DNA of 64,000 nucleotides from Chiloscyllium plagiosum (Eukaryota). The position numbers and the translations under genes are program-made. How positions within the stretch are numbered: position 1 is the first letter of the stretch; each line of letters starts with the position of its first letter. The DNA is taken from NCBI RefSeq assembly GCF_004010195.1, contig NC_057718.1:102489221-102553220 (forward strand). The letters are read 5' to 3'. A model generated the notes under the pieces. The model made no database searches, had not been told where the DNA came from, and was given only the letters and a program-made list of their open reading frames with translations. Shown piece by piece: positions 728 through 64,000 of this stretch.

Positions 728-2365
728 GAGTCATGGAGTCAAACGGCACATAAAAAAGGTTTTCGGCCCAACTCCTCCATACCGACCAAGTTTCCTAAAC
801 TGAACTTGTCCCATTTGCTTGCATTTGGCCTATATCCCTCTAAACCTTTCCTATCCATGTATCTGTCCAAATGTCTTTTAAATGTTTTAATTGTACCAGC
901 CTTTACCACTTCCGTTGGCAGCTCGTTCCACATATAGAGTCATAGAGTCACAGAGATGTACAGCATGGAAACAGACCCTTCAGTCCGACCGGCCCATGCC
1001 AACCAGATATCCCAACCCAATCTCGTCCCACCTGCTGGCATCCGGTTCATATCCCTCCAAACGCTTCGTATTCATATACCCATCCCCCAAATGCCTTTTA
1101 AATGTTGCAATTGTACCAGCCTCCACCACTTCTTCTGGCAGCTCATTCCATACACGTACCACCCTCTGTGTGAAAAGGTTAACCCTCAGTTCCCTTTTAA
1201 ATCTTTCCCCTCACACCTTAAACCTATACCTTCTAGTTTTGGACTCCCCTACCCCTGGGAAAAATAACTTGGCTATTCACCTTATCAATGCCCCTCATGA
1301 TTTTATAAATCTCTATAAGGCCACCCCTCAGTCTTCTATGCTCCAGGGAAAAGAATCCTAGCCTATCCAGCCTCTCCTTATAACTCAAAGACCCCAGTCT
1401 CAGTAACATCCTTGTCAATCTTTTCTGCACACTTTCCGGTTTAACAATCCTTCCTATATGAGAATTGTACGCAGCACTCCAAATGTGGTATAACCTATGT
1501 CCTGTATAGCTTTAACATGACATCCCAGCTCCTGTACTCAATGTTCTGACTGATGGAGGCAAGCATGCCAAACGCCTTCTTTACCACCCTGTCTACCTAT
1601 GACGCTACTTTCAAGGAACCATGTACCTGTACCCCTCGGGCTCTCTGTCCGAAAACACTGCCCAGAGCCCGACCATTGACTGAGTAAATCCTGCCCTGGT
1701 TTGCCTTGCCAAAATGCAACATCTTGCATTTATCTAAATTAAACTCCATCTGCCATTCCTCAGCCCACTTGGCTCAATTGCTCAAGATCTCTTTTTAATC
1801 TTAGATAACCTTCTTCGCTGTCTACTATACCACCAATTTGGTGTCATCTGCAAACTTACTATCCATTCTGTTATAGTCTCATCCAAATTGTTTTTATAAA
1901 TGAGAAGCAAGAGTGGACCCAGCACCAATCCTTCCACCACACCGACGGACACAGGCCTCCAGTTGGAGCAACAACTGTCGGACAAAGTGAGGACTGCAGA
2001 TGCTGGAGATCAGAGTCGAGAGCGTGGTGCTGGTTGAGCACAGCAGGTCAGGCATCATCTGAGGAGCAGGTGAATCGGCGTTTCGGGCAACAGCCCTTCA
2101 TCAGGAATGAGGCACTTTGTTCCTGATGAAGGGCTATTGCTCAAAACATCGATTCTCCTGCTCCTCGGATGCTGCCTGACTTGCTGTGCTCAACCATCAC
2201 CACACTCTCGACTCTGAACAACAACTCTCTACCACCACTCTCTGTCTCCTTCTGTCAAGCCAATTTTATATCCAATTGGCTAGCTCTCCCTGGTTGCCAC
2301 GTGATCTAATCTTACTGCTATTATGCGGAACCTTACCAGAGGCCTTACTAAAGTTGATGTAAAGA
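728..2365 (-). mobile_element. Two tandem 5'-truncated CR1/HER1-type LINE 3' fragments (728-932 and 934-2365)
   Basis: Decayed ORF2 C-terminal motifs WNELPxEVVEAGTIxTFKRHLD, YKERLDRLGxFSLExRRLRG and GxVLGPLL; (AGTCAT) tail repeats. Confidence 0.9.
1980..2215. mobile_element. Palindromic mini Penelope-derived insertion (family A) with a hammerhead motif in each arm
   Basis: Arms ~2010-2108 and ~2120-2215 are reverse complements; flanked by an imperfect TSD GAGCAACAACTGTC/GAACAACAACTCTC; interrupts a CR1 fragment. Confidence 0.85.
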
Positions 2366-4430
2366 GTGTAAAGTTAGTTTCAATGCCGGTGATTATGAAG
2401 CTATCCAAAATTGTCGTAAAAACCTATCCAAGTTGACTGATGTCCTTTAGGGAAGGGAATTTCTCCTTACCTGGTCTGACCTACATATAACTCCAGATCC
2501 ACAGTAATGAAGATGACTCCTAATTGCCCTCTGAAATGGCCAAGCAAGCCACGCCGCTGAAGTGCAATTAGGGATGGACACAAATACTGGCCTTACGAGT
2601 GACACCAACATCCCAAGAAAGAACTTCCAAACTGGAGCTACAAAGGTCCAAGCAATGAACTTATGAAGTGCTTTGCAAAAAGCAAGTCCTGAGCTGGTAT
2701 GGTTAACTCAGCTCCAGTGCTGTTCAAAGGGCACAGTAGTATTCTGAAGCTTTTTCACTTTCAGCCTGAGTTTGTAGAAGGACAATCGAGTAATTTTGAG
2801 AGCCACTGTTTATAGTCAGGGAGCGCAGAGCAATACTTGAGGCAGCGGTGGAGCTGTGAATGTAGTACCTCTGGGCCATGGACCAAGAGATGGAACAGAG
2901 GATGCAGAGAGGGGAAGTTAGAGGCAGAGGCATCCTGGAGCCTTCTCACCTCGACTGTCTGTGGATTCTCAGGCTCCAATTTCATCGTTACAACATCCAT
3001 AGATCAACAAGGATCCACCATTCCCCATTGATACATCCACTGGAGTCATCACATTACATGACTCCACTTGACTACCATCCAGTCATAAAAAACACCTGAC
3101 ATCCTTGTCCAACAACACTTCTACCTTTACAAATAAAAATGAACAGTGCACTCATGTGCACTTAGTGAGTGATTTCTTGCTGGTGCCCACAGCATCTCTG
3201 ACTTCTTGGAAGGTGGGTTGGCTGGTCTGGATCTGAATGGTGCCAATAGCATGGGGGTCCGATCTCTGGGGGTTGGATTCCCATTCTGCCTCCTTGGTTG
3301 ACACATAGTGGAGGTTGTAGTCCTATGGGGCAGACCTGTCTTCAGGCAGGGGACCTGAGGAGAAGGTGGCAACAGTGTGACCTCTGATGGACCTTCCACT
3401 GCAGAACCAAGACATTGGATGGAGATGCTAGATGCTCCAACATGGCAGGGGACAGATTAGCTCAATGGACTAGATGACTAGCACATGGTTCAGGTGATGC
3501 CAAGGGTGTGGTTTTAAGTCCAGTCCTGGCTGAGTTAGGACTGGAGACCTGGCTTCTTGCTCTGACTGTGATAGTAGAGGTGATGGGCAACTACCCATGA
3601 CCCAAATGTCTCAGAACAAAACATCCATTGGCAAAAAGCTAAGGATCTGGCACTGGGTAGAGAACACAGACCACACCAATGTGGTTAGATATAAAAGTAG
3701 ATATAAAAACTAAGAGTAAACAATCAGACATGCACAAACTTTAGGTACAGACTAATTAAACGTAGATGCAGCGCTGAGATGGTTTGTGTGGATAACAATA
3801 CTCACGAGTAGGATTCTGAAGAGTAAAATATGCTGTCACCCTCAAATAGATGTGATGTATTTGCAGCGCATGCTATTCGTTTATTGTGTAGAATGAAATT
3901 AAATCACACATTGCCACAGTACAGGTCCCTTGCTTTATTTATGAGAGTCTATTCTCTTAACACTGCTTGCCTTGGTATCGATTTTCAACCACAAAAGATA
4001 TTAACCTGCTCAAATTGAATGCTCTTATTGTGGAGTTGTGCATGTTGGAGTGCATTTGAAAGCTCTAACACAACACAGATTCAATGAAAGTTAATAAATC
4101 TTCTATTCCATGACAAATGGAAGCCAAATTCCACCCTAACAATCATGGAACACAGGAGGTAGGGCCTTCCCAGCCTTGTACATTGTCAGCAAGTAGGGAG
4201 AAGAGCATGAGATTAGCAGGTCAGGACCTTCTCATCAATGAGAGCAAGATATTCCATTTTCCAACCAAATGTTGAAGGAAGAGACGGATTCTCACTAGTG
4301 ATGGGTCAGAGGCTTATTTACATGCAACAGTGCCCTTATTATTCCCTCATCTCACCTCATGAATATGCAGTTTCATTTCTCCCAGCTGCCTCAGAGAAAC
4401 CAGGCAGTGACAATTCCTGAAATGGAACCC

Positions 4431-5710: not shown

Positions 5711-5909
5711 CTCTGTCTCCATGACTCCACTGCCCCCTGTGGCAAATGGGAGAATATAACAAGTAGGTTGCCATGGGGACATGGTGTGTGGGTCATAAGG
5801 TAGGTTTGGGAAGAGAGTGTGAGAAAACCCACTAAGGTTCGCAGAGAGAAACCCACCAAAACTGACACTTTGCCAATTTCCAGTAAGATTCAGCCCAACG
5901 TATTTTATG

Positions 5910-6235
5910 TCGAGAGTGTGGTGCTGGAAAAGCACAGCCAGTCAGGCAGCATCCGAGGAGCAAGAGAATCGGCGTTTCGAGCATAAGCTCTTCATCAGGA
6001 CTGAATGTGGATAGGTCAGTGCAGGCTTGATGGGCTGAAGGGCCTCGTCTGCGCTGTACGAACCAATGACTCGTCTCCATGACTCTCTGGAGCCCCCTGA
6101 GGCGAATGATTCCTGATGAAGAGTTTATGCCCGAAACGTCGATGCTCCTGCTCCTCGGATGCTGCCTGACCTGCTGTGCTTTTCCAGCACCACAATCTCA
6201 ACTCTGATCTCCAGCATCTGCAGCCCTCACTTTCT
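5910..6235. mobile_element. Palindromic mini Penelope-derived insertion (family A) with a ~105-nt foreign spacer
   Basis: Inverted arms ~5910-6002 and ~6109-6235; 16-bp TSD CCCAACGTATTTTATG (5894-5909) / CCCAAAGTATTCTATG (6236-6251). Confidence 0.85.
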
Positions 6236-6774
6236 CCCAAAGTATTCTATGCATTATCTGAGTATCTCACTTGTTATAATGTTTTTTAAAATATTGGGTA
6301 AATTTTCACCTTTATCATTTTGGTGCTGTTTGCGTACTATTGCAGAATACAGCAGATTTTATAATACTGAGATCAGCAGAATGTCAGTACCTCCAGGTAT
6401 TGAAGATGCTCCATTCTTTCAGTTCCAATAGGACCACACTTGTTCTCCCGCACCTGCAATACTGGCACATAGCAGCAGCAATCCACCTTTGGCTTGTATG
6501 GTGGAGTGTTTTTATAACTCTCACCCTCAGCCATGAATCCCTCCATGGCCCTGCCCCACTCTACCTCTGCAACCTCTCCCAACCTGACAAACCTCTGAGA
6601 TCTCTGTGCTCCTCTCAGTCTAAACTCTTGCGCATCCTTGACTTTAATCCCTCCCCCATGGGTCAACATTGTCGTATAAAGTAATAGATGTGAAAGGCTT
6701 AATCCAGGAGCTGTGCTGAAACCCTGTCCATGCTGATGCTTAACACAGCCACTCGATGGAGCTTTGGGCAGGTC

Positions 6775-7020: not shown

Positions 7021-7092
7021 ATCAGTACAATTCTAACAAGTACTTAGGTATAATAAATATTACCTCATTATCTCAGATAAGTACCTTATTTG

Positions 7093-7385
7093 TGGCACAG
7101 TGGCTAGCACAGCTACTTCACAGTGCCAGGGACCCAGGTTCAATTCCAGCCTTGGGCGACTGTCTGTGTGGAGTTTGCACATTCTCCCCGAGTCTGCGTG
7201 GGTTTCCTCCCACAATCTAAAGATGCGCAGTTTAGGTGAATTGGCCATGCTAAATTGCTCATAGTGATAGGTGCATTAGTCAGGGGTAAATATAGGGTAA
7301 AAGAATGGGTCTGGGTGGGTTACTCTTCAGAAGGTTGATGTGGACTTGTTGGGCCCAAGGGAACTGTAGGGAATCTAATCCAATC
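7093..7385 (+). mobile_element. HE1 (V-SINE) copy
   Basis: tRNA-like head GGCACAGTGG...GGTTCAATTCC, V-domain core, CR1-like tail. Confidence 0.9.
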
Positions 7386-7649: not shown

Positions 7650-7976
7650 TAGATTAGATTAGATTACCCAGAGTGTGGAAACAGGCCCTTCGGCGCAACA
7701 AGTCCACACCGACCCTCCGAAGAGTAACCCACCCAGACTCAATTCCCTACATTTACCCCTGACTAATGCACCTAACACTACAGGCAATTTAGCATGGCCC
7801 AATTCACCTGACCTGCACATCTTTTGGAAAGTGAGAGAAAACCTGAGCACCTGGAGGAAACCCACGCAGACACGGGGAGAATGTGCAAACTCCACACAGT
7901 TGCCCGAGGTGGGAATCGAATCTGGGTCTTTGGCACTGTCAGGCAGCAGTGCTAACCACTGAGCCACCTTGCCGCC
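7650..7976 (-). mobile_element. HE1 (V-SINE) full-length copy
   Basis: (TTAGA)n tail at ~7648-7666, V-domain core, tRNA head ending ~7976. Confidence 0.9.
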
Positions 7977-8294
7977 CTTGATTGGTAGTGTCTCCTGTGA
8001 AGCATTTTGGGATGTTTCACACACACCAAGCCCAAGGATATGGCTTGGCGTTTGTAATGCCAGATACCCTGCCAAAGCTCTGTTAAGGCTGGTATTAAAA
8101 TGCAACATTTGAATGAAGTGCATCAATGACAATACATGTAAATTCATACTGCCACCAGATCCAGAACATTGCAGAAGGAGGTTTGGGAATTGAATGAAAA
8201 GCTGAAATACACTTCTGTTAAGTAACTGAATAATGTTAAACAAATAATACGCTTGTGACAAAATGAAAGAGGAAGGGTAAGAGGAGCCATTTGA

Positions 8295-9290: not shown

Positions 9291-9483
9291 TGGAGAAAGT
9301 GAGGACAACAGATGCTGGAGAGTCAGAGTGGGAAAGTGTGGCGCTGGAAAAGCAGAGCAGGTCAGGCAGCATCCGAGGAGCAGGAGACATTCCTGATCAA
9401 GGGCTTATGCCTGGAACGTCGACTCTCCTGCTCCACGGATATTGCCTGACCTGCTCTGCTTTTCCAGCACCACATTTTAGACT
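9291..9483. mobile_element. Palindromic mini Penelope-derived insertion (family A)
   Basis: Inverted arms; one mutated hammerhead core at ~9389-9425; flanking duplication CTGAATTTC. Confidence 0.8.
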
Positions 9484-10049
9484 CTGAATTTCATCCAGGG
9501 CTATACTGGTCTGAAAACAAATTAAAAAAAATGAAAGAACTGCAAATGTTGTGAATCAGAAAAAAAAAACATAAATTGCTAGAAAAGCTCAGCAGGTCAG
9601 GCAGCATCTGGGAATGTTTCGGGTCCAAAGACTTTTGCTCAGAGCTTTAAAATGAGCCTTCTTGTGATGGGGTGGTAACATCCCTATCCCTGGACTGGGA
9701 GACCCAGGTTCAAGTCCACCTGCTCCAGAGGTGTGTAATAATAACCCTGAACAGATTGCTAGGGGAAAAAATAGCAGGGATAGGCCATTTGACCCTGTGA
9801 GTCTGAAGATAGCCCAAATCATTCAAGAGACAGATGGCATGGATTTGGATTAACTCTATGAATGCAGCAAGCACTGGAATTGATTATTAATTCATTGTGT
9901 TAGCATGAGCAAGTGCTCTGACTCTAAAGTTTAAACAAAAAGATTGGTCGTACAGAATTTGAGTACTGCTGAAAAATGATGCATTTTTTTGGAACTTTTG
10001 GTCTTGCATACTTCAGGACAATTCACAAGAATACAACATAAAGGGGAAC

Positions 10050-12720: not shown

Positions 12721-13309
12721 ATGATAATTATGAAGAGTGTGGTGATTGGTTGGCAAATGGCAATGTTGCCTTGGAGAAAAGAACCCAGATAGATGATGAC
12801 TGACAGCCAACTGCCAAGTTTTCTTTACATTGATATTTCCTGAGAATTGTCCTGATAAATGCAAGATGAGCGGGTTTGACAAAATATGTCTTTCCCAACT
12901 ATATTGAAAAAAAGTAAAATAATTACCCATGGCTTGCAAGATGACATAATTAGCAAAAGTTTGAAAGTTATCAATATAATCAATACTATTGGCTTTGATC
13001 AACTCCTGTCCACACAAAATTTGTTATTAAATACTTACAGCCAAATTTTATCTTCACTGAGTTTTAAGCCAGGTTCCCTCACTGTATTCTTGAGAGATCA
13101 TGCATATTGGGGTTTCATTTGCTGGTTGTGTTGGCAGGGTCCTTGTTGGGTAACCTTACAGTCAGATTAAACATCATGTTATGGTATTTCGTACATTGAA
13201 TGGAGATGAGTGCAGAGGTAAATGTGCTAGCATTTTTTAACTGATTACTGTTAAAAGCCACATGAGCCTTCAGATCAATGGACAGCAACACAATGCTGTC
13301 AATTCTCAT

Positions 13310-13642
13310 TCATAGAATCCCTACAGTGCGGAAACAGGCCATTTGACCCAACAGGTCCACACCGATTCTCCGAAGAGCAAAACCACTCCCCTACCCTATT
13401 ACTCAACATTTCCCCTAACTAATGCACCTAATCTACACACTATGGGCAATTTAGCATGGCTAATTCACCTACCTGGCAAATCTTTGGATTGTGGAAGAAA
13501 ACCAGAGCACCTAGAGGAAACTCATGCAGACACAGGGAGAATGCGCAAACTGCACACAGACAGCAGATCAAGGCTGGAAGTGAACCCGGATCCCTAGTAC
13601 TGTGAGGCAGCAGTGCTAACCACTGAGCCACCATGCCACCCC
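13310..13642 (-). mobile_element. HE1 (V-SINE) copy
   Basis: Colinear with the other HE1 copies in the window. Confidence 0.9.
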
Positions 13643-14525: not shown

Positions 14526-15007
14526 ATACCTCTTTGGCACAGCACAGCGTATTATTTAATTACCACATTGTTGAATGTCCTTGATATATTTGACATCCCC
14601 TAGCCACAGTGTGCAAATTATGTTCATAATTATTAATTGCAGATGTGTACATTTTCTTAAAATAAATAATCTTTTGAGAATTGCTTACACAGTACATCAA
14701 ATGCTACAAGGGTTAGTGTCTGATCATTGCTTGTGTTGCTGCTGCTATAGCTGTTCCCACCCAAAGGATCTGCTGTCAATGGTACTTCCTGCTTGTCTGT
14801 CTTGTGCCACCCTCATACATTCCCTGTGGCATGTCTATAACCACTCCGTGACATGTGTCATCCAACTATGCCAATGCCAACCCCTCTTTCTGGTGTTCCC
14901 TACATGACAGCTCTGATCACATTGATAAAATACTGATATTTTCTTTTCTTAATGTCACTTTTTAGAGTTATTTTCACTTTTGCAGGTTCAATTACCTCTT
15001 CGTTTGT

Positions 15008-15199
15008 CAGAAGTCACACAACACCAGGTTATAGTCCAACAGATTTATATCAAATCACAAGCTTTCGAAGCGCTGCTCCTTTGTCAGGTGACCTGCTGAA
15101 AGCTTGTGATTTGATATAAACCTGTAGGACTATAACCTGGTGTTGTGTGGCTTCTGACTTTGTCCACTCCAGTCCAACACCAGCACCTCCACGTCATGG
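15008..15199. mobile_element. Palindromic mini Penelope-derived insertion (family B)
   Basis: Arms 15008-15068 and ~15098-15158 are reverse complements; 12-bp TSD CTCTTCGTTTGT (14996-15007) / CTCTTCATTTGT (15200-15211). Relatives at ~18571-18782, ~49145-49336 and ~53465-53560. Confidence 0.8.
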
Positions 15200-15769: not shown

Positions 15770-16165
15770 GAAAACAAACCACAGTGCCTATTGGAGGAAC
15801 AACACTTTATCTTCCACCTGGGCATCCTACAGCCTGGAGAACTCAACATTCAAATAACCTCCCTCCCCATCCCCCAAATCCCTTCCCAGCCCCTCCCCTT
15901 CCCTTCCACTGCTCTCGCCACCAACCAGATTTATTCCTCCCATTGATCAACCAGGTCATAGCCCGTACCTGTCTTCACCCACTTCACCACCCTGCCCCGG
16001 CCTCCCTCTTTATCTGCAGCTACCCTACACCCGCCCCCAGTCTTGAAGAAGGGTTACACCTGAAATGTCGACTTCTCCATCTCCTGATGATGCCTGGCTT
16101 GCTGTGTTCTTCCAGTCTCCTGTTTGTCTACCTTGGATTCCAGCATTTCCTGTTTTTTTGTCTCT
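15770..16165 (+). mobile_element. Penelope-like element 3' end with hammerhead motif
   Basis: LEEQHFIFHLGILQPGELNI is a GIY-YIG C-terminus; pyrimidine-rich UTR; AGTC-TTGAAGA-AGGG..CCT-GAAA-TGTC-GACT at ~16039-16073. Confidence 0.8.
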
Positions 16166-16680
16166 ATCTGAATTCAGATCCAAGCCAGTCAGTACGACAT
16201 CTCTGTTCACAGACAGATTTTATTAACAACTCAGGTTATTATTTTTTTAAAAAAGCCTGTTCAGCCATGTAAATAAATTAGTGTTAATTCCTGATGAAGG
16301 GCTTTTGCCCGAACCATCAATTTTCCTGTTCATCGGATAGTGCCTGATCTGCTCTGCTTTTCCAGCACCACACTTCGACTCTGACCTCCAGCATTTACAA
16401 TCCTCACTTTCGCCATGTTAATAAATAGCCTTGGAGCACATGGGACTTGAACAGAGGCCTCTGGCTCAGAGATAGGGACACTATGGGGTCATTAAGGACA
16501 TGAGCCCACACTACCCAGCTTCACTTTTGGTTTTAAGTTGTTTTTTCTTGTTTACACTCAGAAGTGTTATCACACACAGATGAACAGCTTTCTTCCCACC
16601 ATTAAATCACCTGGTGGTACTTGTCATTTAATAAATGCCACCACTAGAATTACCTGTACTCCAATTAGTCTAATTCTTGA

Positions 16681-16918
16681 AGGGAAAAAGTGAGGACTGC
16701 AGATGCTGGAGATCAGAGCTGAGAATGTGTTGATGGAAAAGCGCAGCAAGTCAGGCAGCATCCAAGGAGCAGGAGAATCGACATTTCGATTCCTGAAGAA
16801 GGGCTCATGCCCGAAACATCGATTCTCCTGCTCCTTGAATGCTGCCTGACCTGCTGTGCTTTTCCAGTGCCACACTTTTTGACTGACTCTCCAGCATCTG
16901 AAGTCCTCACTTTCTCCC
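16681..16918. mobile_element. Palindromic mini Penelope-derived insertion (family A), both arms near full length
   Basis: 16684-16788 is the reverse complement of ~16812-16918; a single-arm relative lies at ~16287-16413. Confidence 0.85.
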
Positions 16919-27875: not shown

Positions 27876-28205
27876 GGGGCAGCACAGTGGCTCAATAGTT
27901 AGCACTGCTACCTCACAATGCCAGGGATCCAAGTTTGAATCCTGTCTTGGGCGACTGTCTGTGTGGAGTTTGCAAATTCTCTGTGTGCCTGTGTGGGTTT
28001 CCGCAGGGTGCTCTGGTTTCCTCCCACAATCCAAAGATGTGCAAAACAGGTGAATTGGACATGCTAAATTACCCATAGTGTAAAGTGCATTAGTCAGGGG
28101 TAAATATAGGTTAGGGGAATGGGTCTGGGTGGGTTACTCTTCAGAGGGTCACTGTGAACTTGTTGGGCCAAATGGCCTGTTTCTATACTGTAGGGCATCT
28201 AATTG
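27876..28205 (+). mobile_element. HE1 (V-SINE) full-length copy
   Basis: tRNA head, complete V-domain, CR1-like tail. Confidence 0.9.
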
Positions 28206-28227
28206 AATAGACTGAAATATATCACTA

Positions 28228-45341: not shown

Positions 45342-45799
45342 AAACACAAAGAACAGAATAAAGAATACCCACAGAACTCAGTCTATCCAAACTAGACTTA
45401 ATTATGCTGATCTGAAAAATATGTGCAACAGTACCAATAAACAAACCCCTTAAACACGGAGCAAAAGCTTACAGGTTGAAATTAGAAGGGCAGAAGGAGA
45501 GAGAGTCTAGAAGTCTGTTTCCACACAGCCCACTGCTTAACTGACTCAAATAAGACTTCAGCTTCCAGGACTGACCACTTCTTTCGTTAAATAGGTTCCT
45601 TCAAAAAAATGAAAGCTTTGGCCTAAAGTCTCATCTGTTTACGTATAAACAAAAAGGCCTCTCAGTAAACCCTTTCATCTCTGTACAAACCAGTTGTTTT
45701 GGAGCCCAGACTGCTTTATGACCCCTCTGAAAAGAAATCAAGGACACTGTATCCTTGAGAAAAAGAACAGCTTTTAGAAAAAGGATCAGTTTTGTGACA

Positions 45800-47759: not shown

Positions 47760-47899
47760 CTGTTCTGAATTCAGTATTAAAGCAAGAATTTGTCAAAGAA
47801 ACAAAAGTTTTTGATGGAGCTAAGTGATCAATAGCCCCAGTCTCTTTCTCTTCCCAATACTGGTGCCACTGTTAATATTGAAGTGAGAAGGGTCATGAG

Positions 47900-48632: not shown

Positions 48633-48976
48633 CATAGAAGAATCATAGAACCCCTACAGTGAGGAAACAGGCCATTCAGCCCAACAAGTCCACACTGACC
48701 CTCCAAAGAATAAATCACCCAGGCCCATTCCCCCTACCCTACTACTCTACATTTACCCCTGACTAATGCACCTAATCTCTACACATCCCTGAACACTATG
48801 GGCAATTCACCTTACCTGCACATCTTTGGATTGTGGGAGGAAACTGGAGCACCCAGAGGAAACCCACACAGACACAGGGAGAATGTGCAAACTCAACACA
48901 GGCAGTTGCCTGAGGCTGGAATCGAACCCAGGAGCTTTGAGGCAGCAGTGCTAACCACTGAACCAACATGCTACCC
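48633..48976 (-). mobile_element. HE1 (V-SINE) copy
   Basis: Colinear with the other HE1 copies. Confidence 0.9.
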
Positions 48977-49719
48977 AAGATGATGCAGTTCTGTTTGCTG
49001 GTGCATTTGTTCCTCCTAAATTGCCCTGCATCTTTGTTGCACCATGGCCACAGTGACAATACTTCTTGCTGCAGCTGGATCTATTGATCCTGGTTCTAGT
49101 GAACCAATGTGAGGTATATTGGAAACTGAACAGGTCCTTAGTAATGTGATTTGGAGGTGTCGGTGTTGGACTGGGAAGGACAAAGTTAAAAATCACACAT
49201 CAAGATTAATCAGTCCAACAGGTTTATTTGGAAGCACTAGTTTTCGGAACCATCTGATGAAGGAGCAGTGCTCCGAAAGCTACTGCTTCAAAATAAAGCT
49301 GTTGGACTATAGCCTGGTGTTGTGTGATTTTTAACTTAATAATGTGAGCAGTCAGCATTCACATCATTGTTGAACAGTCTTCGATGCAATGGAACATGAA
49401 CGACTCTGATAAGGAGGGCCATAAAAATGCCTGAACATAGATCATTGATATAATAGATGTTATCCAGCTGTATGTAGCACAAGCCATGTAATCTAAATAT
49501 AGTAAGAGATTGTAAGATAGATTGATAAGATTAATGAAACCATGTGTCCCCCAACTCACAACGCCTGCAATTACTTCTGTTTTACAGAGATGAACATAAG
49601 CAGTTAGCAAAGGTCTGGATTGCTTGTGAACAGGATTTGTAACCTGCATATTTACATGGATTTCAGATGCACGATTCTACACTTATAGATGTCTTTTATC
49701 TGTACTGTTTAAGCACCCT

Positions 49720-50159: not shown

Positions 50160-50415
50160 GGTCTCCTTTTCAGCTTCTCTTCTGTCCTGCCTTACTATCA
50201 ATAGTCCTCTTATATGCCTATCCCTTTCGTATCTCTATCTGGGCTCTGTCTTCACCTATCCAACCCTCCATACTCTGTAACAACATAAATACCCTTTTCC
50301 TTAGCTGTGATCAGTTCTGATGAAGAGTCACCAGACTCAAAATGTTACCTCTGCTTTCACCCCACAGATGTTGCCAGACCTGCTGAGTTTCTCCAGCAAT
50401 TTCTGTTTATGCTTC
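50160..50415 (+). mobile_element. Penelope-like terminal fragment (family D) with hammerhead motif
   Basis: GTT-CTGATGA-AGAGTC-ACCA-GACTC-AAAA-TGTT at ~50314-50350. Relatives at ~34250-34360 and ~52730-52830 (+), and at ~9535-9650 and ~25705-25790 (-). Confidence 0.65.
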
Positions 50416-52065: not shown

Positions 52066-52119
52066 AAGAAATAGGTTAAGATTATCAGACATGATGGTTA
52101 AAACATGGCACTGTCACAG

Positions 52120-52440
52120 AATTAGAATGCCTAGTGTGGAAACAGGCCCTTCAGCTCAACACAGCCACATCGACCCTCCAAAGAGTAACCCACCCAGACC
52201 ATTCCCCTAACTAATGTACCTAATCTGCAGATCCCGAAACACTTTGGGAAATTTAGCATGGCCAATTCACCTAACCTGCACATCTTTGGACTATGGGAGG
52301 AAACTGTTGCACCTGGAAGAAACCCACGCAGGCACGGGAAAATATGCAAACTGCACACAGACAGTCACCTGAGGTTGGAATTGAACCTGGGTCCCTGTTG
52401 CTGTAAGGCAGCAGTGCTAACCACTGAGCCATCATGCCAC
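52120..52440 (-). mobile_element. HE1 (V-SINE) copy
   Basis: Colinear with the other HE1 copies. Confidence 0.9.
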
Positions 52441-53899
52441 TCCTCCTACATGATCACGTGGGAGGCCATTTGGCACGTTTCCTTTCTGTTTCTCAGGTGG
52501 ATATAAAAAATTCCAGAACACAGTTTCAAAGAAGAGGAGAGTTAATCCTCCTTCAAACTCTCCAACTCTTTCCTTCTTTGAGACACTCCTTAAAACCCTA
52601 CTTCTTTGACAAAACTTTCAGTCATCTGCTGCAGTTTTGCCTTATGTGGATCAGGAATAAAGCTTACTTGATGACTGCTCCTGTGAAACGCCTTTTGTCA
52701 CTTTAAGACTGCTATACAATTGCAAATTATTGATCTGAAGGAGGTCACTGGACCTGAAATATTAATTCTGCTTTGTGTCCACAGGTGTTGCCAGACCTGC
52801 TGGGTTTTCCTAGCAATTTCTGCTTTTGTTGCAAATTATTGCTGTTGTAGATGATCTAGTGTCACAGTGTGGTTGATGGGAGGTGTCTGCGTGCAAATCG
52901 GTTGCTTCATTTCTTACAATGAAGACAAAGAATACTTCAAAGCAGCACTTCATTGGCTCTAAAGTGTCTAGTATGCCTCATAGGGCAATGAAAGACACTG
53001 TACAAATTTGACTTCTTCCTTTCCATAAAAAACTCTCCAAACAAGCTTTTGCACACCTTTGCCCTGCCACATGAATTTCAATGGTTTGGACAGTGGTGGG
53101 TTGGAAATACGTGAGTCAATATTCCTACCTTTAAAAGCACCGTGCCCACGCAAGTTGTGAATCCTGTTCTCTTGGAAGAGGGGCAGAGATAGATAGGTTC
53201 TTGAGTTGCAAGGAGATCATGGGTTACAATGAGAATGGGACTGAGACATTTATCAGCCATAATTGAATGGCAGAGCAGACCCGATGGGCTGAATGGCCTA
53301 ATTTCTGCTCCTATGGCTTATGACCCAAACAGAAAGTAAGAAAAAGGGAGGGAGACTCCACTTGAGCTGCAGTAGGCACATCGACAAACAGGCCACCATG
53401 ACAAAGGGGCTAGTGTTGTTGTTGTAGTGGAACGACATAACGATTCTTTCGAAAATATGATTCGGAGATGACCACCTGATGGAGGAGCAGCGCTCCGAAA
53501 GCTAGCGCTTCCAATTAATCCTGTTGGACTATAATCTGGTGCTGCGTGACTTGTAACTTTCGAAAATAAACCGCCAGAACGGTAACGTTCATTCTAGTTT
53601 TTTTTCCTCTCTCTCCATCGATGCGGAGTTTTTCCAGCAACTTCTGTTCACACTTGGTCGCCGACGGGATGGAGTGGCACGCCCGTCGGGGGCGCGGGGG
53701 TAACGCACGACGTTTGGCCAGCGGGGACGCGCGCGCGGGGGAAAAGCATGACGTAGGCCGCCTGGCCGCGCGCGCGCGACGACGGTCGACGTCGGTCGGC
53801 GAGGGGCAGGGGCAGGGGGGCGCGCGCGCGCGGGGGTAAAGCACGACGCAGAGGCCGCCTGGCCACGTGCGCGATGACGTATTACGTAGGCCGGCGAGG

Positions 53900-54031: not shown

Positions 54032-54419
54032 GTGAGTGAGTGATTGAGTGCGTGCGTTCCCGGATGTGCGGCCGCTCTGTCCTCCTATCCCTCCCCTTGC
54101 GGATTTAGACGGCGGCACCGTGCGCTCAGTTCGGGCTTAGGGCTTTTTAATTCCCTTCCCCTCCCCCCACCACCACCGAAAAACAAACGAGAGGGGAAAA
54201 AAAAAATCTGGGGTTTGGGAGGGGGGTTGGTGGAGAAGAGAGGAAAAACTCGGCTGCGGATCAGGCGTTTTGCAGCAGGAGCGGGCGTTAACAATTTTTT
54301 TGGGGGGGAAAGAACACCATCCTTCTCTCCCATTCCCCTTCCTTTCCCCCCCCGCCCCCTTCCCCCCCTTCAAACCGCCGGTGCTTGGGTAAAAAAAAAC
54401 ATCCAGTCACAACATCCAG

Positions 54420-54475
54420 GTGAAAACGGCGGTTGATCGAAGTCTCTGGAAGCTTCACCTTCGGCGGCCAGGATG
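54420..54475 (+). other. Candidate exon ending in the start codon (start approximate)
   Basis: CCAGGATG|GTGAGC: ATG at 54473-54475 with A at -3, directly followed by a good donor; possible acceptor CATCCAG| at 54419. Confidence 0.4.
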
Positions 54476-56779
54476 GTGAGCGTGCCCTTTTTTTTTCGGG
54501 GTGTGCTGGATGGAGGGTGAGGGGAGGGGGGGTGCGTTTTTATGATCACTTCGCTCGGGTTTGTTTTTATTTGTGTTGTGTGTGTGTCGGCGCTGATCGT
54601 GAATGTAGTGTATTGTCTGAGCTCCTGGGCGGGAGGGCGGCCATCACGGTGCCACCGCCGCAGTGTGGGCCCGGACTCAGCTGGGCGCAGCCTTCGCCTT
54701 TCTCTCTTTCTCTCTGTCCCCCTCTCTGTCTCCCCCGGGCAGTGGCTGGGTTCTCCTGGCCTCGACCCCCCCGCCCTTATCCTGCCGAGCCTCCAGGCCC
54801 TGCCACCTCTCCCCAGTCCTAACCTGGCGCCTCCCTCTTACCTTCTGCAACCAGCTGGCCTTGGCACCCGTTCCCTCGGATCGGCACCATTACATTAAAC
54901 GTTTATTTTATTTCACACCCCGCCCTTTCCCTCATTGAGCTGCAGCTCCGGGGCTGCGTCCCACTCTTGCTTTTACTTGCAAAGCTGACTCTTATTTGCC
55001 AACCCCGTTTCCTTTTTCCTCCTTTATTTATAGGTTGCACATTGACACACTTCAGATGACTTGATGTGTTTTTTTTTCGCTGGCTGCTCGGGGGGAGGGA
55101 GGGGGGAGTGGGGTGGTTTTTAAACTATGTTGTCCTTTTTTGGAACCCTCCACCTGCCTCAACATTACAGGAGCATTAGATGCAAAATCTAACTTTTTTC
55201 CTTGGTAGTTGTAATAAGTAATCATCTTTTTGTTTGGGCTATCCAGGTGGAGTTTGTTTGGTCGCCTTGAGTCAGGGGAATCTTTCGAGCTGTGCATTTT
55301 GTATTTTGAATGCTTGTTATGGATAGTGGAAAACATTTTTAGCTCAGTGTTGAGTTCAAGTTAAGTTTAAAATGGAGGGGAAGGTATTGGCTAGTACTCC
55401 AAAAAGACAAATGTTTTAGTGTAGGACTTGAGAGTGGAGCTGAAATGGTAGCTAACCTGTTGTCCAGTGAGGTATATTATAACTTAAGACTGAAATCAGA
55501 TAACTTATCTATAATAATTTCTAAGTGAAGTGGAATGTGTCAGATGGTGGTGATCTTGAATAGAAAATACTAAAGATGTTCAGTAGATCAATCACCCTTT
55601 CTGGAGAGAACAGAAGTTTCAGAACTTTATACAAAATTGTTTGCCGCAATTGTAAAATTGAGCTTTGTATTAAAGCTTCAGGTATTGGGACTTCTAATCT
55701 GTTTTATCTTGTATGCATAGTTTTAACTTGGCTGACAATTTTTTCAACATGGATTGTTTTGAACTTTATTATAGGGAATAGGTGACAGTTCAGTCCTCTG
55801 GTTTCTAAAATATAAGTTGAATTGTTGGAAACAAATTGCAAAATGGAATAATTTAAGAAATAAGATGGGGTGGCTCTTATTAGAAAGTTGAAATAAAATC
55901 CCCTGAGGAATCTCCCTGATCTTTATTTGGTATAGAAAATTTGTGATGGCATATGATTTCTTTTACTGTTTTTGAAAATGTAGTATGCCATTGTTTTTGA
56001 AATGTTTGAAACTCCACACAGGAGTTGTATAACTTGTCACAATGAACAATTGCTATCAAATAATTCTTAATTTGAAACAAGAGGACTATTTGACAGAAGC
56101 AATCAACTGTTTAAGTTACTGTAAATCAAATTAACTGTTTCAGAAATTTGAGATGTGGCTATGATACATTTGTACATCTATTGGAAAAACAAAATAGCTG
56201 GTGGGAAATTCAAATCAATGCTTCCCTTGGGAAATGTTTCACTATGTTGATGCTTGGGGGAATAGGATCTACCATCACTCCTTGCAACTGTGATCCCATG
56301 AGATGCAGTGTAATGATCCTGCAAGACTTCTCCTAACTAAGAACACCTGATGATTTAACATGTTTAGGTTTCTCTTGTGGATAAGTAAATTTACACCAGT
56401 TAATCACCATCATCTCATAACTCTTGTCTGAGAGTTCAGATACTCCTTTGATACAGGAAACAGGTGAATATTAATTTAAGCCCACGTAGTTAATTTTCCT
56501 CTGTAGCCCATAAGTGCTGACTTAAGCCCTTGAATAGCCAAATTGAAATCACGTACTTGAGGGCTTCGGACGTGGAACCTTCTCTGTGACTCGTGACTGC
56601 ACTGAGCTGCAAATTTATTAACTGTGCTTTGGGATTATGGTTATGCTTGTAATGTTTTTTCAATTTTTGATTTTAAACATGTGCAAAAAGTCTTCAGACA
56701 TGTTACATTTTCTACAACTATTATTTAACTATGTCAAGACATAATGAAATGGCCCAAACCAGTTCCATTAGCAGCTGAA

Positions 56780-57420
56780 CTGGTGTATTTTCCTTTTCTT
56801 TCGACCTCTATCTTTCTGCAGCCATGGACATGGCCTGCCATGCCATCTTTCTCCAATGCTTCTCCTTTGTTTCTAGAGGGTGTCCTTTGGCGTCTTTGAC
56901 AATTGCTCTCTGTTCTCATGCCATTGCCACAGGAGTCTCCCCAGGGATCTAACCTAGATTGCGTCCTCTCCCTTTTGTGTGTACAGCCTATTACCAACGC
57001 CACTTGCAAACATACCCAGGGTCTCCCAGTGTACATGGACAAAATGCAGTTCCATTTCTCTGTCCTGTTGCTGCTGTGCTGTCAGGCTGTATTTCTGATT
57101 CTGGATCAGTGGTGCTGGAAGAGCACAGCAATTCAGGCAGCATCTGACGCGCAGCAAAATCGACGTTTCGGGCAAAAGCCCTTCATCAGGAATAAAGGCA
57201 GAGAGCCTGAAGCATGGAGAGATAAGCTAGAGGAGGGTGGGGAGAAAGTAGACAATAGGTGTCAGGGCAGAGGAGATGACCTGGGAGTTGCAATGGGAGA
57301 GGGACTCCCTGCGATTCTTGTAGAGAGAAGAGGAAAACTTCAAGGTTTCTGATACCCAGTTATGGATGCTGACATTTATTCTGGTTTAAATGTTAACTGA
57401 AACAATTGTCACCCGTCCAA
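56780..57420 (+). mobile_element. Ancient L2 LINE RT fragment, interrupted by a family A Penelope fragment (~57108-57345, -)
   Basis: LYLSAAMDMACHAIFLQCF (LDLSAAFDTVDH), TGVSPGI (GVPQGS), VYMDKMQFH (YADDTQLY). Other L2 3' pieces at ~6520-6660, ~7490-7650, ~23520-23700 and ~52500-52720. Confidence 0.6.
57158..57193 (-). ncRNA. Minimal type I hammerhead ribozyme motif (family A), core intact
   Basis: Minus strand AUUC-CUGAUGA-A-GGGC-UUUU-GCCC-GAAA-CG-UC-GAUU. Confidence 0.75.
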
Positions 57421-58219
57421 ACTTCCCTCTTCCACTCCCTCAAACTTTCTTTGCCACTTCTTTACCACATAGCTACTGTCTTTAGGAACAGGACTTTGTT
57501 TGCAATATGTGATTAATTAGTCACTAAAGTAGAATGAAGTGTTTTTGTTACCAATTTTGTGGGCAAATAATGTGATTATGAAATTCTGAAAAATTGTATA
57601 GACTTTTGGATGATGTATACATTGTTTTCGGTACAACTCTCTGGAGAGCATTTGGTAGGGAATTTATAAAATTGACAGACCCATTACTGGAGAAAGGATA
57701 ACTGCAACCATTTTGCAATCCCTTCTCCGGTAGCTTTTAGGTCAATTTAGTTAATTGAGCATCTGCTGATTTGTCTTGGGACTTGCATTTAAGTAGTGTT
57801 TTTTGTCGCCTTGAGGATTTCTCAAAATGCCTTGCAGCCATTGGGGTACTTGGTGTGGTCTTTGTCATGTTGAAAACCTACACATGCCAAGGTCCCTTAA
57901 GCAGCAACTATACAGTCATACAGCATGGAAATATCCTTCAGTTCAACTCATCCATGCCGACCATGTATCCTAAACTGATCTAGTCCCATTTATCAGCATT
58001 TAACCTATATCCCTCTAAACCACTCCTATTCATTTAACCATCCAGGTGACTATTTAAATGTTGCAATTGTATTTGGCTCCACTACTTCTCTGGCAGCTCG
58101 GTCCATGTATGCACCACTCACTGTGAAATGTTGCCCCTCTGGTTCCTTTTAAAATCTTTCGTGTCTCATCTATGTCCTCTAATTTTGGATTCACCTACCC
58201 TGGGTAAAAGCCTTTTACT

Positions 58220-58828
58220 CAAAGTTTGTGCGAAGATTTGTAGCTCAGAACTGACAGCCAGACTACTGCGACCCCTAGAACTCATAACGGCACACAAACC
58301 AACAGCCACGCTCAGACAACAACTCACCAGAACGAAGGACCCGATACCCAACATGAGCAAAACTAATGTAGTGTACAAAATACCATGCAAGGACTGCACA
58401 AAACACTATATAGGACAAACAGGAAGACAGCTAACAATCCGCATACATGAACATCAACTAGCCACGAAACAACACGAACAGCTATCCTTAGTAGCCAAAC
58501 ACGCAGACAACAAGCAACATGAATTCGACTGGGACAACACTACTATCATAGGGCAAGCCAGACAGAAAACAGCCAGGGAATTCCTAGAGGCATGGCATTC
58601 ATCCACAAACTCCATCAACAAACACATCGACCTGGACCCAATATACCAACCACTAAAGCGGACAGCTGAAACTGACAACCGGAAATGGCAGGGACAGACC
58701 ACTATAAACACCGGAGAAAACATCAAAGAAGTGCTTCGCAGGAGGCCCCCAAGCACTGATGATGTCGCCTAGCCAGGGGACGAAACGTTTGCAACAAAAA
58801 CTTCCAGCTCGGCGAACAGAACCACAAC
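58220..58828 (+). mobile_element. Young 5'-truncated Penelope (Poseidon-like) insertion with an open GIY-YIG domain
   Basis: Uninterrupted frame SELTARLLRPL...NVVYKIPCKDCTKHYIGQTGRQLTIRIHEH...AREFLEAWHS; perfect 11-bp TSD AGCCTTTTACT (58209-58219 / 58829-58839); inverted terminal piece at 58220-58246. Confidence 0.93.
58753..58792 (+). ncRNA. Minimal type I hammerhead ribozyme motif (family C), core intact
   Basis: GCA-CUGAUGA-U-GUCGCC-UAGCCA-GGGGAC-GAAA-CG-UU-UGC: stem I GCA/UGC, stem II with one G-G mismatch, palindromic ACGU stem III. Confidence 0.8.
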
Positions 58829-59061
58829 AGCCTTTTACTATTCACCCTCTCCAAGCTTCTCATGATTTCATAAACTTCTACAAGATCGCCTTGTAGTCAC
58901 TTCAGGGAAACAAACCCGAGCCTATCCAACCTCTTCCCTATACCTCAAACCCACAGGATCATCTTCAACCATTTGAAAGGCTCCGTGAGATCTTTTGTTT
59001 AGCACCCCATCAAATAAAGTTGATAGTCTGGTAGTGCAATATTCCCTCAGCAATATATTGA

Positions 59062-59255: not shown

Positions 59256-60094
59256 ATACTGATGTGTCACGTTTGGTGTGTGCTCAAGTTGTGAGGCTTG
59301 AATCTGAAGCCTGCTGATTTGTGTAACGCTAATATTGGAACTCGGTATGAAGAATTATTTACTTTATTAAAAAATTGGAAACAAGATGCTACAGTTTTAA
59401 TTTGCAGTTATCCTAAATCTTCCTAGTATCTCTGACTAGGCTTGGCCCACTATCTAGCAATTCATGTACGTTTTAAGTGATTGACATTGGGCAGCAGTGC
59501 CTACATTTTTTTTTGAGTAGATAGTCAGGTTTTGGGGAAATGCAGCTTTCTGAGAAAGTTGAAATTGTCATGTCTTTTCCTTCCATTCGTTACAATATTT
59601 CCTGTATTTTCCTTTAAATAAATGTATTTATTACTTGTTGGGTGGTGGTGTTTACAAAGCTATATTAGGTAACATTCAGGAATTATCTTGGAGGCAATTT
59701 TGGTGGTATAAGTAGTAAAGTAAAACTAGAATTGGAGCTTATGATGCATGTTTTGAAGTACTCATCGTTGATTTAGTGATTGATTCATTTCCAGAAAAGA
59801 GTTGAATTTCCTTTTGTTTAACTTTGTTCTTTCCTGGGTTCTAACTAGTGAATTGTCTCCAGCATTTTCAGTCCTCTTTTTAGTCCTTTTTGGTTTTGGC
59901 TTCTTTGAATAGAATCCAGCTGTTTCAAAATGTTACTTGCTCTAAAGGATAGATAGATAAGAATTTCTGCTGAATCTTTATTTGTGTTTGCAAAGAAATC
60001 AATTGAGATGTAGAGGTTTTAAAATGTAGAATTTCATTAAAATAAATTGAACTCTAGGTTTACTTTTCAGTACAAGTAGAAGTCTCTTAGATAA

Positions 60095-60368
60095 GTATGG
60101 AAACAGGCCCTTTGACCCAACAAGTCCGCACCAACCCTCCGAAGAGTAACCCACCCAGACCCATGCCCGCACCCTATATTTACCGCTGATTAATGCTCCT
60201 AACAGTATGGACAATTGAGCATGGCCAATTAACCTGACCTACACATTTGCATTGTGGGAGGAAATCCACACAGACATGGGGAGAATGTGCAAACTCCACA
60301 CTCCTGAGGCAGAATTGAACCCAGGTTACTGGTGCTGTTCATCAGCAGTGCTAACCAGAGCCATACCC
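60095..60368 (-). mobile_element. HE1 (V-SINE) copy with small deletions
   Basis: Colinear with the other HE1 copies. Confidence 0.85.
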
Positions 60369-62647
60369 TTTTGGTATACAGCCATTGTTTATATGATCCT
60401 TTTCTAGTTTTTTTTGTTCTGAGCAGGGACTGAGTACATAATTTATTTTTTAAAAACTTTAAACACCATATTGAGAGATTGGCAACCATACAGAAATAGT
60501 CTCTCATGAGAGACTATCTACATGGAATAACAAAACACCTGTAGTCTGATTTACACTAGATCTGCAAAACTAGATTTTAAATAATTGAGATGCACGTTTT
60601 GTAAAACTATGGGAGGATAAAGAGTTTTCAACATAACTTCCAAATGATTTTTATTTTTAAACACAAATTTGTAAGCCACCTGTCTGTCAAAACCAGATGT
60701 GTAAATGCATTCAAGTGGCAGTTTTGAATTATAGAATTTCAGTAAATACAGTCTTTCCAAATGAGACCCCATACGTTTTTAACTTTTGAATAAAGGTGAA
60801 GATTATCTACTGTATTTTGCAGCCAATGAGATGCTCTTTGAAGTGTGGTTGTTGTAAAATTGGGAAACTCTATTGGCAAGTCTTCACTGTCAACAAATAT
60901 GTTTATAATAGCCTAATCTGTTGGTTTACAATACTGATGTTTTTCTGAGGGTGGCATTGAGCAGGCATCAAATGAACTTCTACAGTTGCTGATGTGCTGA
61001 GACATAGTTCTGCAGCTGCCAACTGTCCAGTAGATGCTCTTGCTAAAATTTTCGTTTCAGATTCATGCTGGTTGTTGAATGGTGGGGTTGCTTTTGGAAT
61101 ATCAATGAAACTTTGCATTTATAGAAAGCACAAAGAGCACGTTCAGTTGGCGGTGATCGAAGCACTATGATTAATGCAGGCAATGTTCAAAAAGTGTACA
61201 GATTTTCTGTCCTTGTTTCCCAGGACTGGGTCCTTTATATTTTTGCCCAGGTGAGATCTGATGGCTCAGCACAAACCAAAATTTAACACTAGGACCTTTC
61301 TTTGTCATCGGTGTTGAATTAAGCCATACAATCAGTCAATTGAATTAAAATATTTTAGTTCCTATCTTGAAGAATTTGGTTCTTTTTTAATCACTTGCAA
61401 ATACTTTTCAGGTAGTGGTTAGTACTTGGTGGATGGGTTGAATGGAATCTAATGATTTGGGTATGAGATGCTCTGGCAGTACACCTTTTTATTCTGAGTT
61501 GAGTAAGATAGTTAAGAAATTTGAGATTCTTGTTGGTAACAGCAGAGCCCTTATTTTCTTTTTTGAGTGCATGTTGAGAATTTTATCTGTAGTTGGATGT
61601 AAGTTGGGAACCCAGATTGTTCAATTCTCTTCACAATTTTTTTAAGAAAGATTAGTTAAGTTTAAACATTGATATTCATGTGCAGGGCCTGCTGTCTTGG
61701 GGGCTGGAAACATAAGCAACTGAAGGTATTTTATTCTTTGGATAACAGTGTCAAAACATCTAAAACTGATGTTAAGCAGACCATTAAGGTTTTCCCCTTG
61801 AAATCTGAAAACCTTTTTGGCACTCAGTCAGTAGCTTGACATATAATTAAGTTTAGTGACTAAATTTGTGAATAAATCTGCATTACTTTGCTTTTCATTC
61901 AAACTTTTGCAGATATGTGGGCATCCTTCACTGTTTTGTAACTGAACCTTTCTTTTGCAGTGATAGCGTTAAACATGTTTAACATAGTATTTTTCATCAA
62001 TTTTTAGAGTTTTATCTGCAGTCAGTGTCTTTCCCTCTACTTCTCTCTACACTCTTGCACTGTCCCTTCCATTCTGCCACATAATTGGCACTTAATGAAG
62101 AGTATACGTCAGTTATTGCATACGAGGTTAGTAGTTATTTTGCAATGGAACAATTGTGCTTTTCTTGCTGACCACGTTCGTTTTGTCAAAACCCTCTTTT
62201 CTTTCCCCCACAAAATAAAGAAATGATCTTCACAACATATCCATATATCTGCAGCAAAATAGTAACTTTACATGCAGCCTTCATTCAGAAGGACAAAAAT
62301 CTTATCACTTGTACCATTGGTTGTTTTATAAAGTTCAGGGAGGCAAAATTTAAACTTTCGTTCCTGTGTCAATGCACATCCACTGGAATTCAGTAAATGG
62401 CAATTTTATCGTTGCTGTTTGTTGTTGGCATCACTTCAGCTAGATGTAATGTTAATATATTTATACTGTTGACAAGAAATTTCTGCTACCATCATAAAAT
62501 AATGAGATGATTATCTTTCCAGGGCTCATACTGTTAACATCTAACAATTCATATAGCTAGTTCAAATTCAAGTTGTTTGCTCCTAACCCTTGCCAAAACA
62601 AAGCCCTCATTAATTCACAACTTGAAAGAAAGGATATGGTGTCAGCT

Positions 62648-64000
62648 AGTTTTGAGAAGATGTGTAGTTCAGGTTGAGGTTCTGGATGTAGGTTTGCTAG
62701 CTAAGCTGGAAGGTTCATGTTCAGACGTTTTGTCACCATACTAGGTAACATCTTCAGTGAGCCTCCGGGCAAACCATTGCTGACGATTCCTGCTTTCTAT
62801 TTATATGCTTGGGTTTCTTTGGGTTGGTGATGTCATTTCCTGTTCTTTTTCTCGGTGGTGAATCAGGTCCAAGTCATTGTTTGTTTGTTGACAAAGTTCT
62901 TTTTGGAATGCCATGGTTCTAGGAATTCTCGTGCGTGTCTCTGTTTGGCTTGTCCTAAGGTGGATGTATTGTCCCAGTCGAAGTGGTGTCTTTCCTCATC
63001 TGTACATAATGATATTAGTGAGAGAGGGTCATGTCATTTTGTGGCTAGGTGATGTTCATGTATCCTGGTGGCTAGTTTTCTGCCTGTTTGTCCAATGTAG
63101 TGTTTGTTACAGTCCTTGGATGATATTTTGTAAATGACATTAGTTTTGCTTGTTGTTCGTATAGGGTCTTTCAAGTTCATTAGTTGCTGTTTTATTGTGT
63201 TGGTGGGTTTGTGGGCTACCATGATGCCAAGGGGTCTGAGTAGTCTGGCAGTCATTTCCAAGATGTCGTTGATGCAGGGGGCAGAGTGGCTAGGATTTCT
63301 GGACATGTTTTGTCTGCTGGTTTGGGTTTGCTGCTGAGAAATCTGTGGATTGTGTTCATTTGGTACCTGTTCTTTTTGAATACTTGGAAAAAAAGGTGAT
63401 TTTCCTCTGCTCTGCATAGTTTCTGTGAGCTGGCTCTTTGGAATAATGTTCTGATGCTGCTTCATTTGTGGATGTTGGGATGATTGCTTCTGTAGTTCAA
63501 TATTTGGCCCCTATGTATTTTCCTGTAGATGCTGGTTTGAAGTTGGCTGTTTGCTCTCTGTGACATCGAGAAATGGCAGTTTGTTGTTTATTTTCCTCCT
63601 CTTTAGTCAATTTTATGCTACTAATGGTGCTATTGATGGTTTTGAAGCTATCTTCTAATTTGTTCTGTTTAGTGATGACAAAGGTGTCATCCATGTAGCG
63701 GATCCAAAGTTTGGATTGGCTGGTTGGCAGAGCTGGTTTGAGTCTCTGCTAAGTACTCTGATATTGGAGATCCCATGGGTGTTCCGTTGGCTTGTCTGTA
63801 GGTTTTGTTGTTGAAGGTGAAGTGGGTGGTAAGGTATAGGTCCATTAGCTTGACAATACTGTCCTTGCTGATGAAGTTGGTGGTGTTTGTATCTTTTGGG
63901 TCTTCTCATAGTGTAGTTACTACACTCCTCTCCTCTCCTACATCAAAGACATCTCGGAAATGACTGCCAGACTACTCAGACCCCTTGGCATCATGGTAGC
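62648..64000 (-). mobile_element. Penelope (Poseidon-like) element: decayed RT and GIY-YIG on -, switching to a + strand piece at ~63925
   Basis: GTPMGSPIS, WIRYMDDTFVI, LEMTARLLRPLG..NVIYKISSKDCNKHYIGQTGRKLATRIHEH; terminus 62648-62855 with a degenerate hammerhead at 62721-62760; 63925-64000 reads LPYIKDISEMTARLLRPLGIMV on +. Confidence 0.9.

Follow-up and report, generated by a model that had tools for sequence, protein, structure and literature searches.

Minimal hammerhead ribozymes of Penelope-like insertions in a bamboo shark genome and a putative transcription start at their first base

Minimal hammerhead ribozymes (min-HHRs) in the pseudo-long terminal repeats (pLTRs) of Penelope-like elements (PLEs) have already been published (Cervera & de la Pena, 2014, PMC4209133; this and the other papers are cited from their accessible portions). 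We analysed a stretch of 64,000 nucleotides from Chiloscyllium plagiosum (NC_057718.1, positions 102,489,221 to 102,553,220; hereafter the window), which holds such motifs of four groups, A to D, and the first exon of the calcineurin B gene. Like the metazoan min-HHRs of PMC4209133, they are of type I without helix III, with an extra base between positions 9 and 10.1, a G10.1-C11.1 pair and a palindromic 15.2-16.2. In both cases a genome has several families, whose copies are mostly solo and spread genome-wide, and that paper names Neptune and Poseidon of fishes. The copy number is unlike, at ~0.2-0.36 million here versus ~4,000 in coelacanth and ~9,000 in Xenopus, counted with differing descriptors. 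In its accessible portion 5' ends are not analysed, and the shark term was not found in the one supplement file searched.

In the anole Poseidon element PAc (Frangieh et al., 2024, PMC11167929), two internal reverse transcription start sites define the tail, as appears to be the case here; the hammerhead is dispensable for insertion, unprocessed RNA is the main template, and the cut site is without RNA-seq ends. PAc belongs to the Poseidon clade and its open reading frame (ORF) starts in stem II, whereas the signal reported below lies in Neptune-type families, and the accessible text on PAc reports neither a transcript start nor a cap G at the hammerhead. Endonuclease-containing (EN+) PLEs (Craig et al., 2021, PMC8557442; Arkhipova et al., 2013, PMC3846280) share with our copies 5' truncation, an adjacent inverted copy, a 30-40-bp tail, target duplications, TATA- and initiator (Inr)-like pLTR motifs and, in Neptune, a Zn-finger-like linker; the portions consulted do not describe 5' ends concentrated on one base at stem I together with a G excess. 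Untemplated G at the 5' ends of full-length L1 and SVA insertions has been ascribed to the cap (PMC3287187). The extra G between target duplication and the RNA's first base is the likeness, whereas L1 and SVA are another retroelement class and here the signal is a genome-wide bias in ~100-bp inserts. Animal non-LTR retrozymes (Li, Clavereau & Pollet, 2026 preprint), reported from one cartilaginous fish, are likewise non-coding PLE-derived hammerhead units; they are defined by tandem arrays, whereas the window copies are solo or inverted. Retrozyme arrays were rejected, with no such array among the 8 Tandem Repeats Finder rows of the window.

Our reading, to which we give a probability of about 0.7, is that the motifs are pLTR min-HHRs in decaying Penelope-like insertions, and that many of the Neptune-type copies probably arose by run-off at the capped 5' end of uncut element RNA. 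The motif class, its genome-wide occurrence as solo copies and the shapes of the inserts are already known; the 5' pile-up at stem I and the G excess are new, and constitute one testable mechanistic addition. In the literature searched, subscription papers and some supplements excepted, nothing was found on a transcript start or a cap G at PLE hammerheads, or on PLE hammerheads of sharks. On the role of the hammerhead in Penelope elements the insertions offer a fossil record, one of uncut templates with a 5' end likely at the ribozyme's first base. If true, this would fix the promoter of vertebrate Neptune elements and explain why solo min-HHRs are so numerous.

Hammerheads in the window and the elements that carry them

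The window was scanned for the core with stem II of at least 4 bp and NN-UH, using 30 local dinucleotide shuffles as control. The window yielded 4 exact hammerheads, where the shuffles averaged 0, and 9 with a single core mismatch, where they averaged 0.2. A preliminary description of this DNA had placed min-HHRs at 17 coordinates, and all 17 carry the motif (type I, CUGANGA ... GAAA ... UH core with stems I and II) on the strand implied, far above chance. Recognisable copies number ~24, including seven not listed there (2123+, 9393+, 15087-, 16043+, 18662+, 24144- and 37946-). The same description held that core and pairing are kept across families; the motif is present at all 17, but the core is exact through UH in six (6113, 16793, 31870, 49254, 57189 and 58756) and most copies are damaged. 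Core, stem II and stem I are passed by 4 window copies, and core, both stems and the ACGU palindrome are all kept in only 2 of the 17, at 57158-57193 (-) and 58753-58792 (+). There is no helix III, and the loopless palindrome described in its place is borne out, with ACGU in families A and C and AGCU in B, often turned into ACAU or AUGU by CpG decay. The reported GAGC/GCUC stem II change at 5966-6002 is real, but it is a shared variant (5 A-U pairs among 79 sampled copies) in a copy whose U16.1 is mutated. The cut predicted after 58789 is right, a UU site common to the subfamily. An Rfam scan of the window returned 12 matches at E <= 10, none of them a hammerhead, as expected because the motifs lack stem III. 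Massive genome-wide solo min-HHRs are already in print. The hammerheads of the window are as follows.

57158-57193 (-): family A; core, both stems and ACGU all intact; antisense within intron 1 of calcineurin B, at the end of a longer Neptune-type 3' piece
6109-6144 (+): family A with an exact core and a broken stem II; begins at -4, preceded by G; forms the right arm of inverted pair 5909-6243
5967-6002 (-): family A variant (GAGC/GCUC in stem II) with a mutated U16.1; forms the left arm of inverted pair 5909-6243
16789-16824 (+): family A, core exact, palindrome decayed; within hairpin insert 16682-16918
2073-2108 (-): family A, U16.1 mutated; head-to-head with 2119-2154 in hairpin insert 1974-2217
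2119-2154 (+): family A, G12 mutated; same hairpin insert, 1974-2217; previously unlisted
9389-9424 (+): family A, decayed; hairpin insert 9292-9487; previously unlisted
16287-16322 (+): family A, A15.1 mutated; short solo insert
16039-16074 (+): A-related variant, C3 mutated; previously unlisted
24114-24148 (-): family A, core exact, stem II broken; previously unlisted
28321-28356 (-): family A, G12 mutated; continues upstream into the element body
30299-30330 (+): family A, CCUG subfamily; truncated at the first base of the core and accompanied by an inverted tail
37915-37950 (-): family A, decayed core; ~250 nt 3' of a Neptune-type GIY-YIG fragment, in relic ~37907-39638
50313-50350 (+): family D with a mutated G12; Inr-like TCAGTT at its start and ATAAAT 28 nt upstream
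34252-34290 (+): family D, decayed
52732-52768 (+): family D, A9 mutated
49251-49285 (+): family B with an exact core, stem I broken at its first pair; in hairpin insert 49143-49337, with an A-rich poly(A) signal at ~49291-49297
53473-53507 (+): family B, A9 mutated; adjoins the host CpG island
15056-15090 (-): family B, decayed; hairpin insert 15006-15192; previously unlisted
18659-18692 (+): family B, decayed; hairpin insert 18572-18784; previously unlisted
31834-31873 (-): family C, core exact, palindrome decayed; left arm of hairpin insert 31757-32255
32177-32216 (+): family C, core broken; right arm of hairpin insert 31757-32255
62721-62760 (-): family C with a mutated G12; lies 3' of a GIY-YIG fragment (62884-63510, -) and has an inverted partner at 64485 (+)
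58753-58792 (+): family C, intact; sense in calcineurin B intron 1, overlapping the stop codon of a GIY-YIG frame

The hammerheads are the pLTR ends of Penelope-like elements, families A and B being Neptune-type by layout, C probably Poseidon-type and D related to A. The Penelope-like terminal-repeat origin proposed earlier agrees with the link of A, B and C to reverse transcriptase (RT) or GIY-YIG sequence, which lies upstream in the same sense, at 160-340 nt in A and ~640 nt in B, and with the ORF end overlapping the hammerhead in C. Of the about four Penelope families proposed, three are thereby linked; family D shares the flank of A, but an ORF was looked for in 30 loci and none was found. 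The family A flank follows GIY-YIG in the same sense at the distance given above in 13 of 21 A-endonuclease match rows, the remaining rows being loci without flank or outside the flank scoring, and an unbroken frame in one family A locus (L162) matches RVT_1 (E 1.8e-7). In family B, locus L169 shows upstream RT (YIDD), a CxxxxCxxC linker and GIY-YIG; the Cys-rich linker is decayed in the family A window copies. Between GIY-YIG and pLTR, the family B 3' untranslated region contains a long CA-rich microsatellite-like stretch (L169 and L173). The GIY-YIG matches of family C, which we take to be Poseidon-type from its motifs, are below the Pfam cut-off (E 0.0015 and 0.044), and its stop codon lies inside the hammerhead. 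The Neptune label for A and B follows the motif layout of Craig et al. (2021, PMC8557442). A broken element body also lies in the window.

45731-47761 (+): Neptune-type Penelope body with RT, thumb and GIY-YIG fragments; family A tail without recognisable hammerhead

The inserts have two alternative 3' ends (the Penelope 'tail'), 10-16-bp target duplications and inverted arms, the latter in 82 of 174 family A copies. The genome holds a very large number of hammerheads, as the preliminary description had expected. A single exact family A pattern matches 18,219 times in the 3.56-Gb genome (control 0), and a generic core 394,074 times versus 30,336 for the reversed pattern. A readable sample of 829 kb, made up of the window and 80 stretches of 10 kb (20 of them window neighbours), contains 91 cores, of which 48 pass the strict stem filter and 0 in the reversed control. 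The genome total is about 0.2-0.36 million cores, and the strict filter scales to about 0.2 million.

5' ends of the insertions and a putative transcription start

Flank matches of family A numbered 181, of which 174 (a few D-like) could be scored, with positions relative to C3. Their 5' ends pile up at -6 to +1 (51 copies, mode -4); 35 lie inside the hammerhead (2 to 26), 2 at the cut site (27-29), 41 further down and 45 further up, and 32 of the 174 reach beyond -15. With 2 of 174 copies starting there, an origin of the short inserts at the cleavage site was rejected. Among copies without an inverted arm, 24 of 91 begin at -6 to +1 and their flanks are unique. An unrepresented subfamily behind the peak was also rejected, since a comparison of 26 non-inverted edge copies reveals no upstream sequence in common (best scores 18-24). 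In most A subfamilies -4 falls on the A of TCATTC, in one on that of TTATTC, and in D on that of TCAGTT, motifs that we take to be Inr-like. In 28 of 30 pyrimidine-rich copies with intact upstream sequence, across subfamilies, TTATCT is found at -30 to -32, and family B has TATAAA at -32, a spacing read by eye. A splice acceptor as the cause was rejected, as family A has no AG before ATTC.

A copied cap adds G, so a G excess is expected at -5. Counted genome-wide, 9,023 family A copies have G before ATTC and 3,846 have A, a ratio of 2.35 against a genomic background of 0.60, whereas the family A control position before CTGA gives 2,199 G and 1,906 A (1.15; background 0.90). At the family D start G:A is 368:201 (1.83; background 0.66). 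By eye, the first 100 matches of one subfamily had shown no excess (~5 G and 7 A at -5, inverted junctions included), whereas the genome-wide counts do. A subfamily with a templated G as the source was rejected: the first 40 G-type loci gave 41 junctions (17 inverted), with a templated G in no subfamily, and 1-2 of the 41 are point changes or internal joins in longer copies. Some short inserts (L103, L110 and L134) carry 7-17 extra bases between target duplication and ATTC, which twice resemble a false start of the element's own 5' end.

We propose that transcription would start at the first base of stem I, the A of TCATTC or TCAGTT, and that the element protein would start reverse transcription internally, ~90-130 nt downstream, at either tail end, by analogy with the anole Poseidon element. 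Priming in the first pLTR would run off the RNA 5' end and copy the cap as G, giving a 95-130-bp insert, and priming in the second pLTR of a read-through RNA would yield the longer copies. The templates would be uncut, which would fit the anole hammerhead being protein-assisted and dispensable for insertion. Selection would keep the ribozyme only in active source elements, where dimer formation or assistance from protein would let it cut; a capped leader of 32 nt would be lost on cleavage, and most dispersed copies would be inactive. In its strongest form the proposal is that Neptune-type elements start transcription on the hammerhead's first base, making the ribozyme a cap-proximal switch, that first-pLTR priming turns the capped 100-nt leader, still uncut, into cap-marked mini-insertions by the hundreds of thousands, from which the promoter can be mapped, and that cleaved RNA is almost never the template; we hold this to be slightly better than an even bet.

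Several observations weigh against the proposal. A single-cell RNA run shows no pile-up of read ends at any cut site or elsewhere, although this weighs little, the run being 3'-biased and possibly of a related organism. Of the 13 G-type junctions with a target duplication of at least 10 nt, 9 (one locus duplicated) have their G within the duplication, 3 have an untemplated G and 1 is ambiguous; with most G's inside the duplication, the cap origin is statistical and not visible per copy. Family B 5' ends are broader (17 of 49 in -14 to +1). No full-length tandem element joining the tail to the ORF start was found among 12 long-frame loci, only 3' pLTRs, several with unread stretches. Private mismatches at non-CpG core letters are slightly fewer than in the flanks, 39/790 (4.9%) versus 233/3364 (6.9%; p 0.045), and in the bracketed subset 15/330 (4.5%) versus 119/1410 (8.4%; p 0.016); this may be leftover subfamily variation in the flank, or could be weak selection.

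The same elements might instead yield the 5' pile-up through stalling or template switching of the reverse transcriptase at the folded hammerhead. The pile-up does coincide with the fold edge, and inverted junctions cluster in and around the hammerhead, with 26 of the 35 starts inside it being inverted. In family C, however, stem II is longer and the 5' ends do not pile up: at least 69 nt of upstream sequence is present in 21 of 24 copies, so that the fold alone does not stop copying. Neither the G excess at a single position nor the fixed place of a motif at -30 would follow from stalling, and we regard it as unlikely.

Decay of the copies and the calcineurin B intron

In family A, core and stem II are intact in 38 of 79 spanning copies. 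The catalytic G12 is mutated in 15 of 79, against 80 of 474 for all CpG letters; the core is unprotected within copies, G12 decaying like other CpGs. The covariation of stems looked for in the preliminary description exists between subfamilies: a stem I pair of family C is UA in 8, GC in 4 and CG in 2 of 15 aligned copies (of 24), and a stem II pair of family A is GC in 71 and AU in 5 of 79. In family C, 1 of 9 pairs changes on both sides, in related sequences and hence by few events. Conservation and covariation lie between subfamilies, individual copies decay neutrally, and selection probably acted mainly on the source elements. The functional ribozyme 'reservoir' put forward earlier does not agree with this, about half of the spanning copies being broken; the inverted arms described above would sequester the fold, and published min-HHRs cleave poorly or need the element protein. 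The dispersed copies are ordinary repeat debris at unusually high copy number.

For the host gene, the earlier placement of a sense, core-intact copy at 58753 in the first intron was confirmed, the gene being calcineurin B. RNA contigs cover 54108-54476 and then continue elsewhere, and the downstream exons 2-5 (L022, L025 and L026) are those of calcineurin B. Domesticated intronic hammerheads of the RECK type are single loci with canonical stems and conservation between species; the copy at 58753 is a young repeat copy with a target duplication.

54108-54475 (+): exon 1 of calcineurin B (PPP3R1; calcineurin subunit B type 1), ending in ATG; followed by intron 1 (20,489 bp)
58220-58828 (+): 5'-truncated Poseidon-type insert with inverted tail, GIY-YIG fragment and pLTR; 11-bp target duplications 58209-58219 and 58829-58839

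A second sense, core-intact family C hammerhead of the same intron lies just past the window at 64485 (+), 5.7 kb from 58756, also with ACGU, and its inverted arm is at 62644-63258. A working reservoir in which host RNAs are cut (calcineurin B intron 1, for instance, by the cis pair 58756 and 64485) would draw on these two intact cores, on the ~0.2 million copies passing the core-plus-stems filter and on the slight conservation of the core. We consider it quite improbable: G12 decays at the rate of any CpG, an inverted arm lies near 64485, and the monomer folds offer an alternative in which CUGAUGA pairs with the 3' strand and the core is not left open. In the published assays consulted, monomers were inactive and dimers weak, with 8 of 9 Xenopus dimers silent, and the anole hammerhead required protein and had no RNA-seq ends at its site (PMC11167929). 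That the short inserts form an independent SINE (short interspersed nuclear element)- or retrozyme-like family with its own master genes, rather than being by-products of full elements, agrees with short copies outnumbering long ones, with the missing ORF link of D and with defined ends and target duplications, but is highly improbable given that the same subfamily sequences continue upstream into RT and endonuclease bodies and that tandem arrays are absent from the window. A solo pLTR with its promoter could act as a master, which overlaps with the run-off reading preferred here.

In the single-cell run mentioned above, poly(A)-tailed reads occur at family B pLTRs, with 220 at 49311 (+), 658 at 49212 (-) and 169 at 53534 (+), counted in 2% of the run; they come from other copies, possibly of a related organism. 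The tails are attached ~15 nt downstream of an AATAAA-type signal and ~30 nt past the predicted cut, and the reads run through the cut site, i.e., the RNA is uncut. The family B pLTR is a working poly(A) site, and family B repeats may supply many host 3' ends.

Two other repeats were noted in the window. A broken Gypsy-type LTR retrotransposon at 40293-44143 (-) retains RVT_1 and integrase zinc-binding fragments. A repeat of ~320 bp, presumably a tRNA-type SINE, is present in at least 7 copies (7092-7379, 7658-7977, 13308-13642, 27877-28208, 48639-48977, 52118-52443 and 60094-60363).

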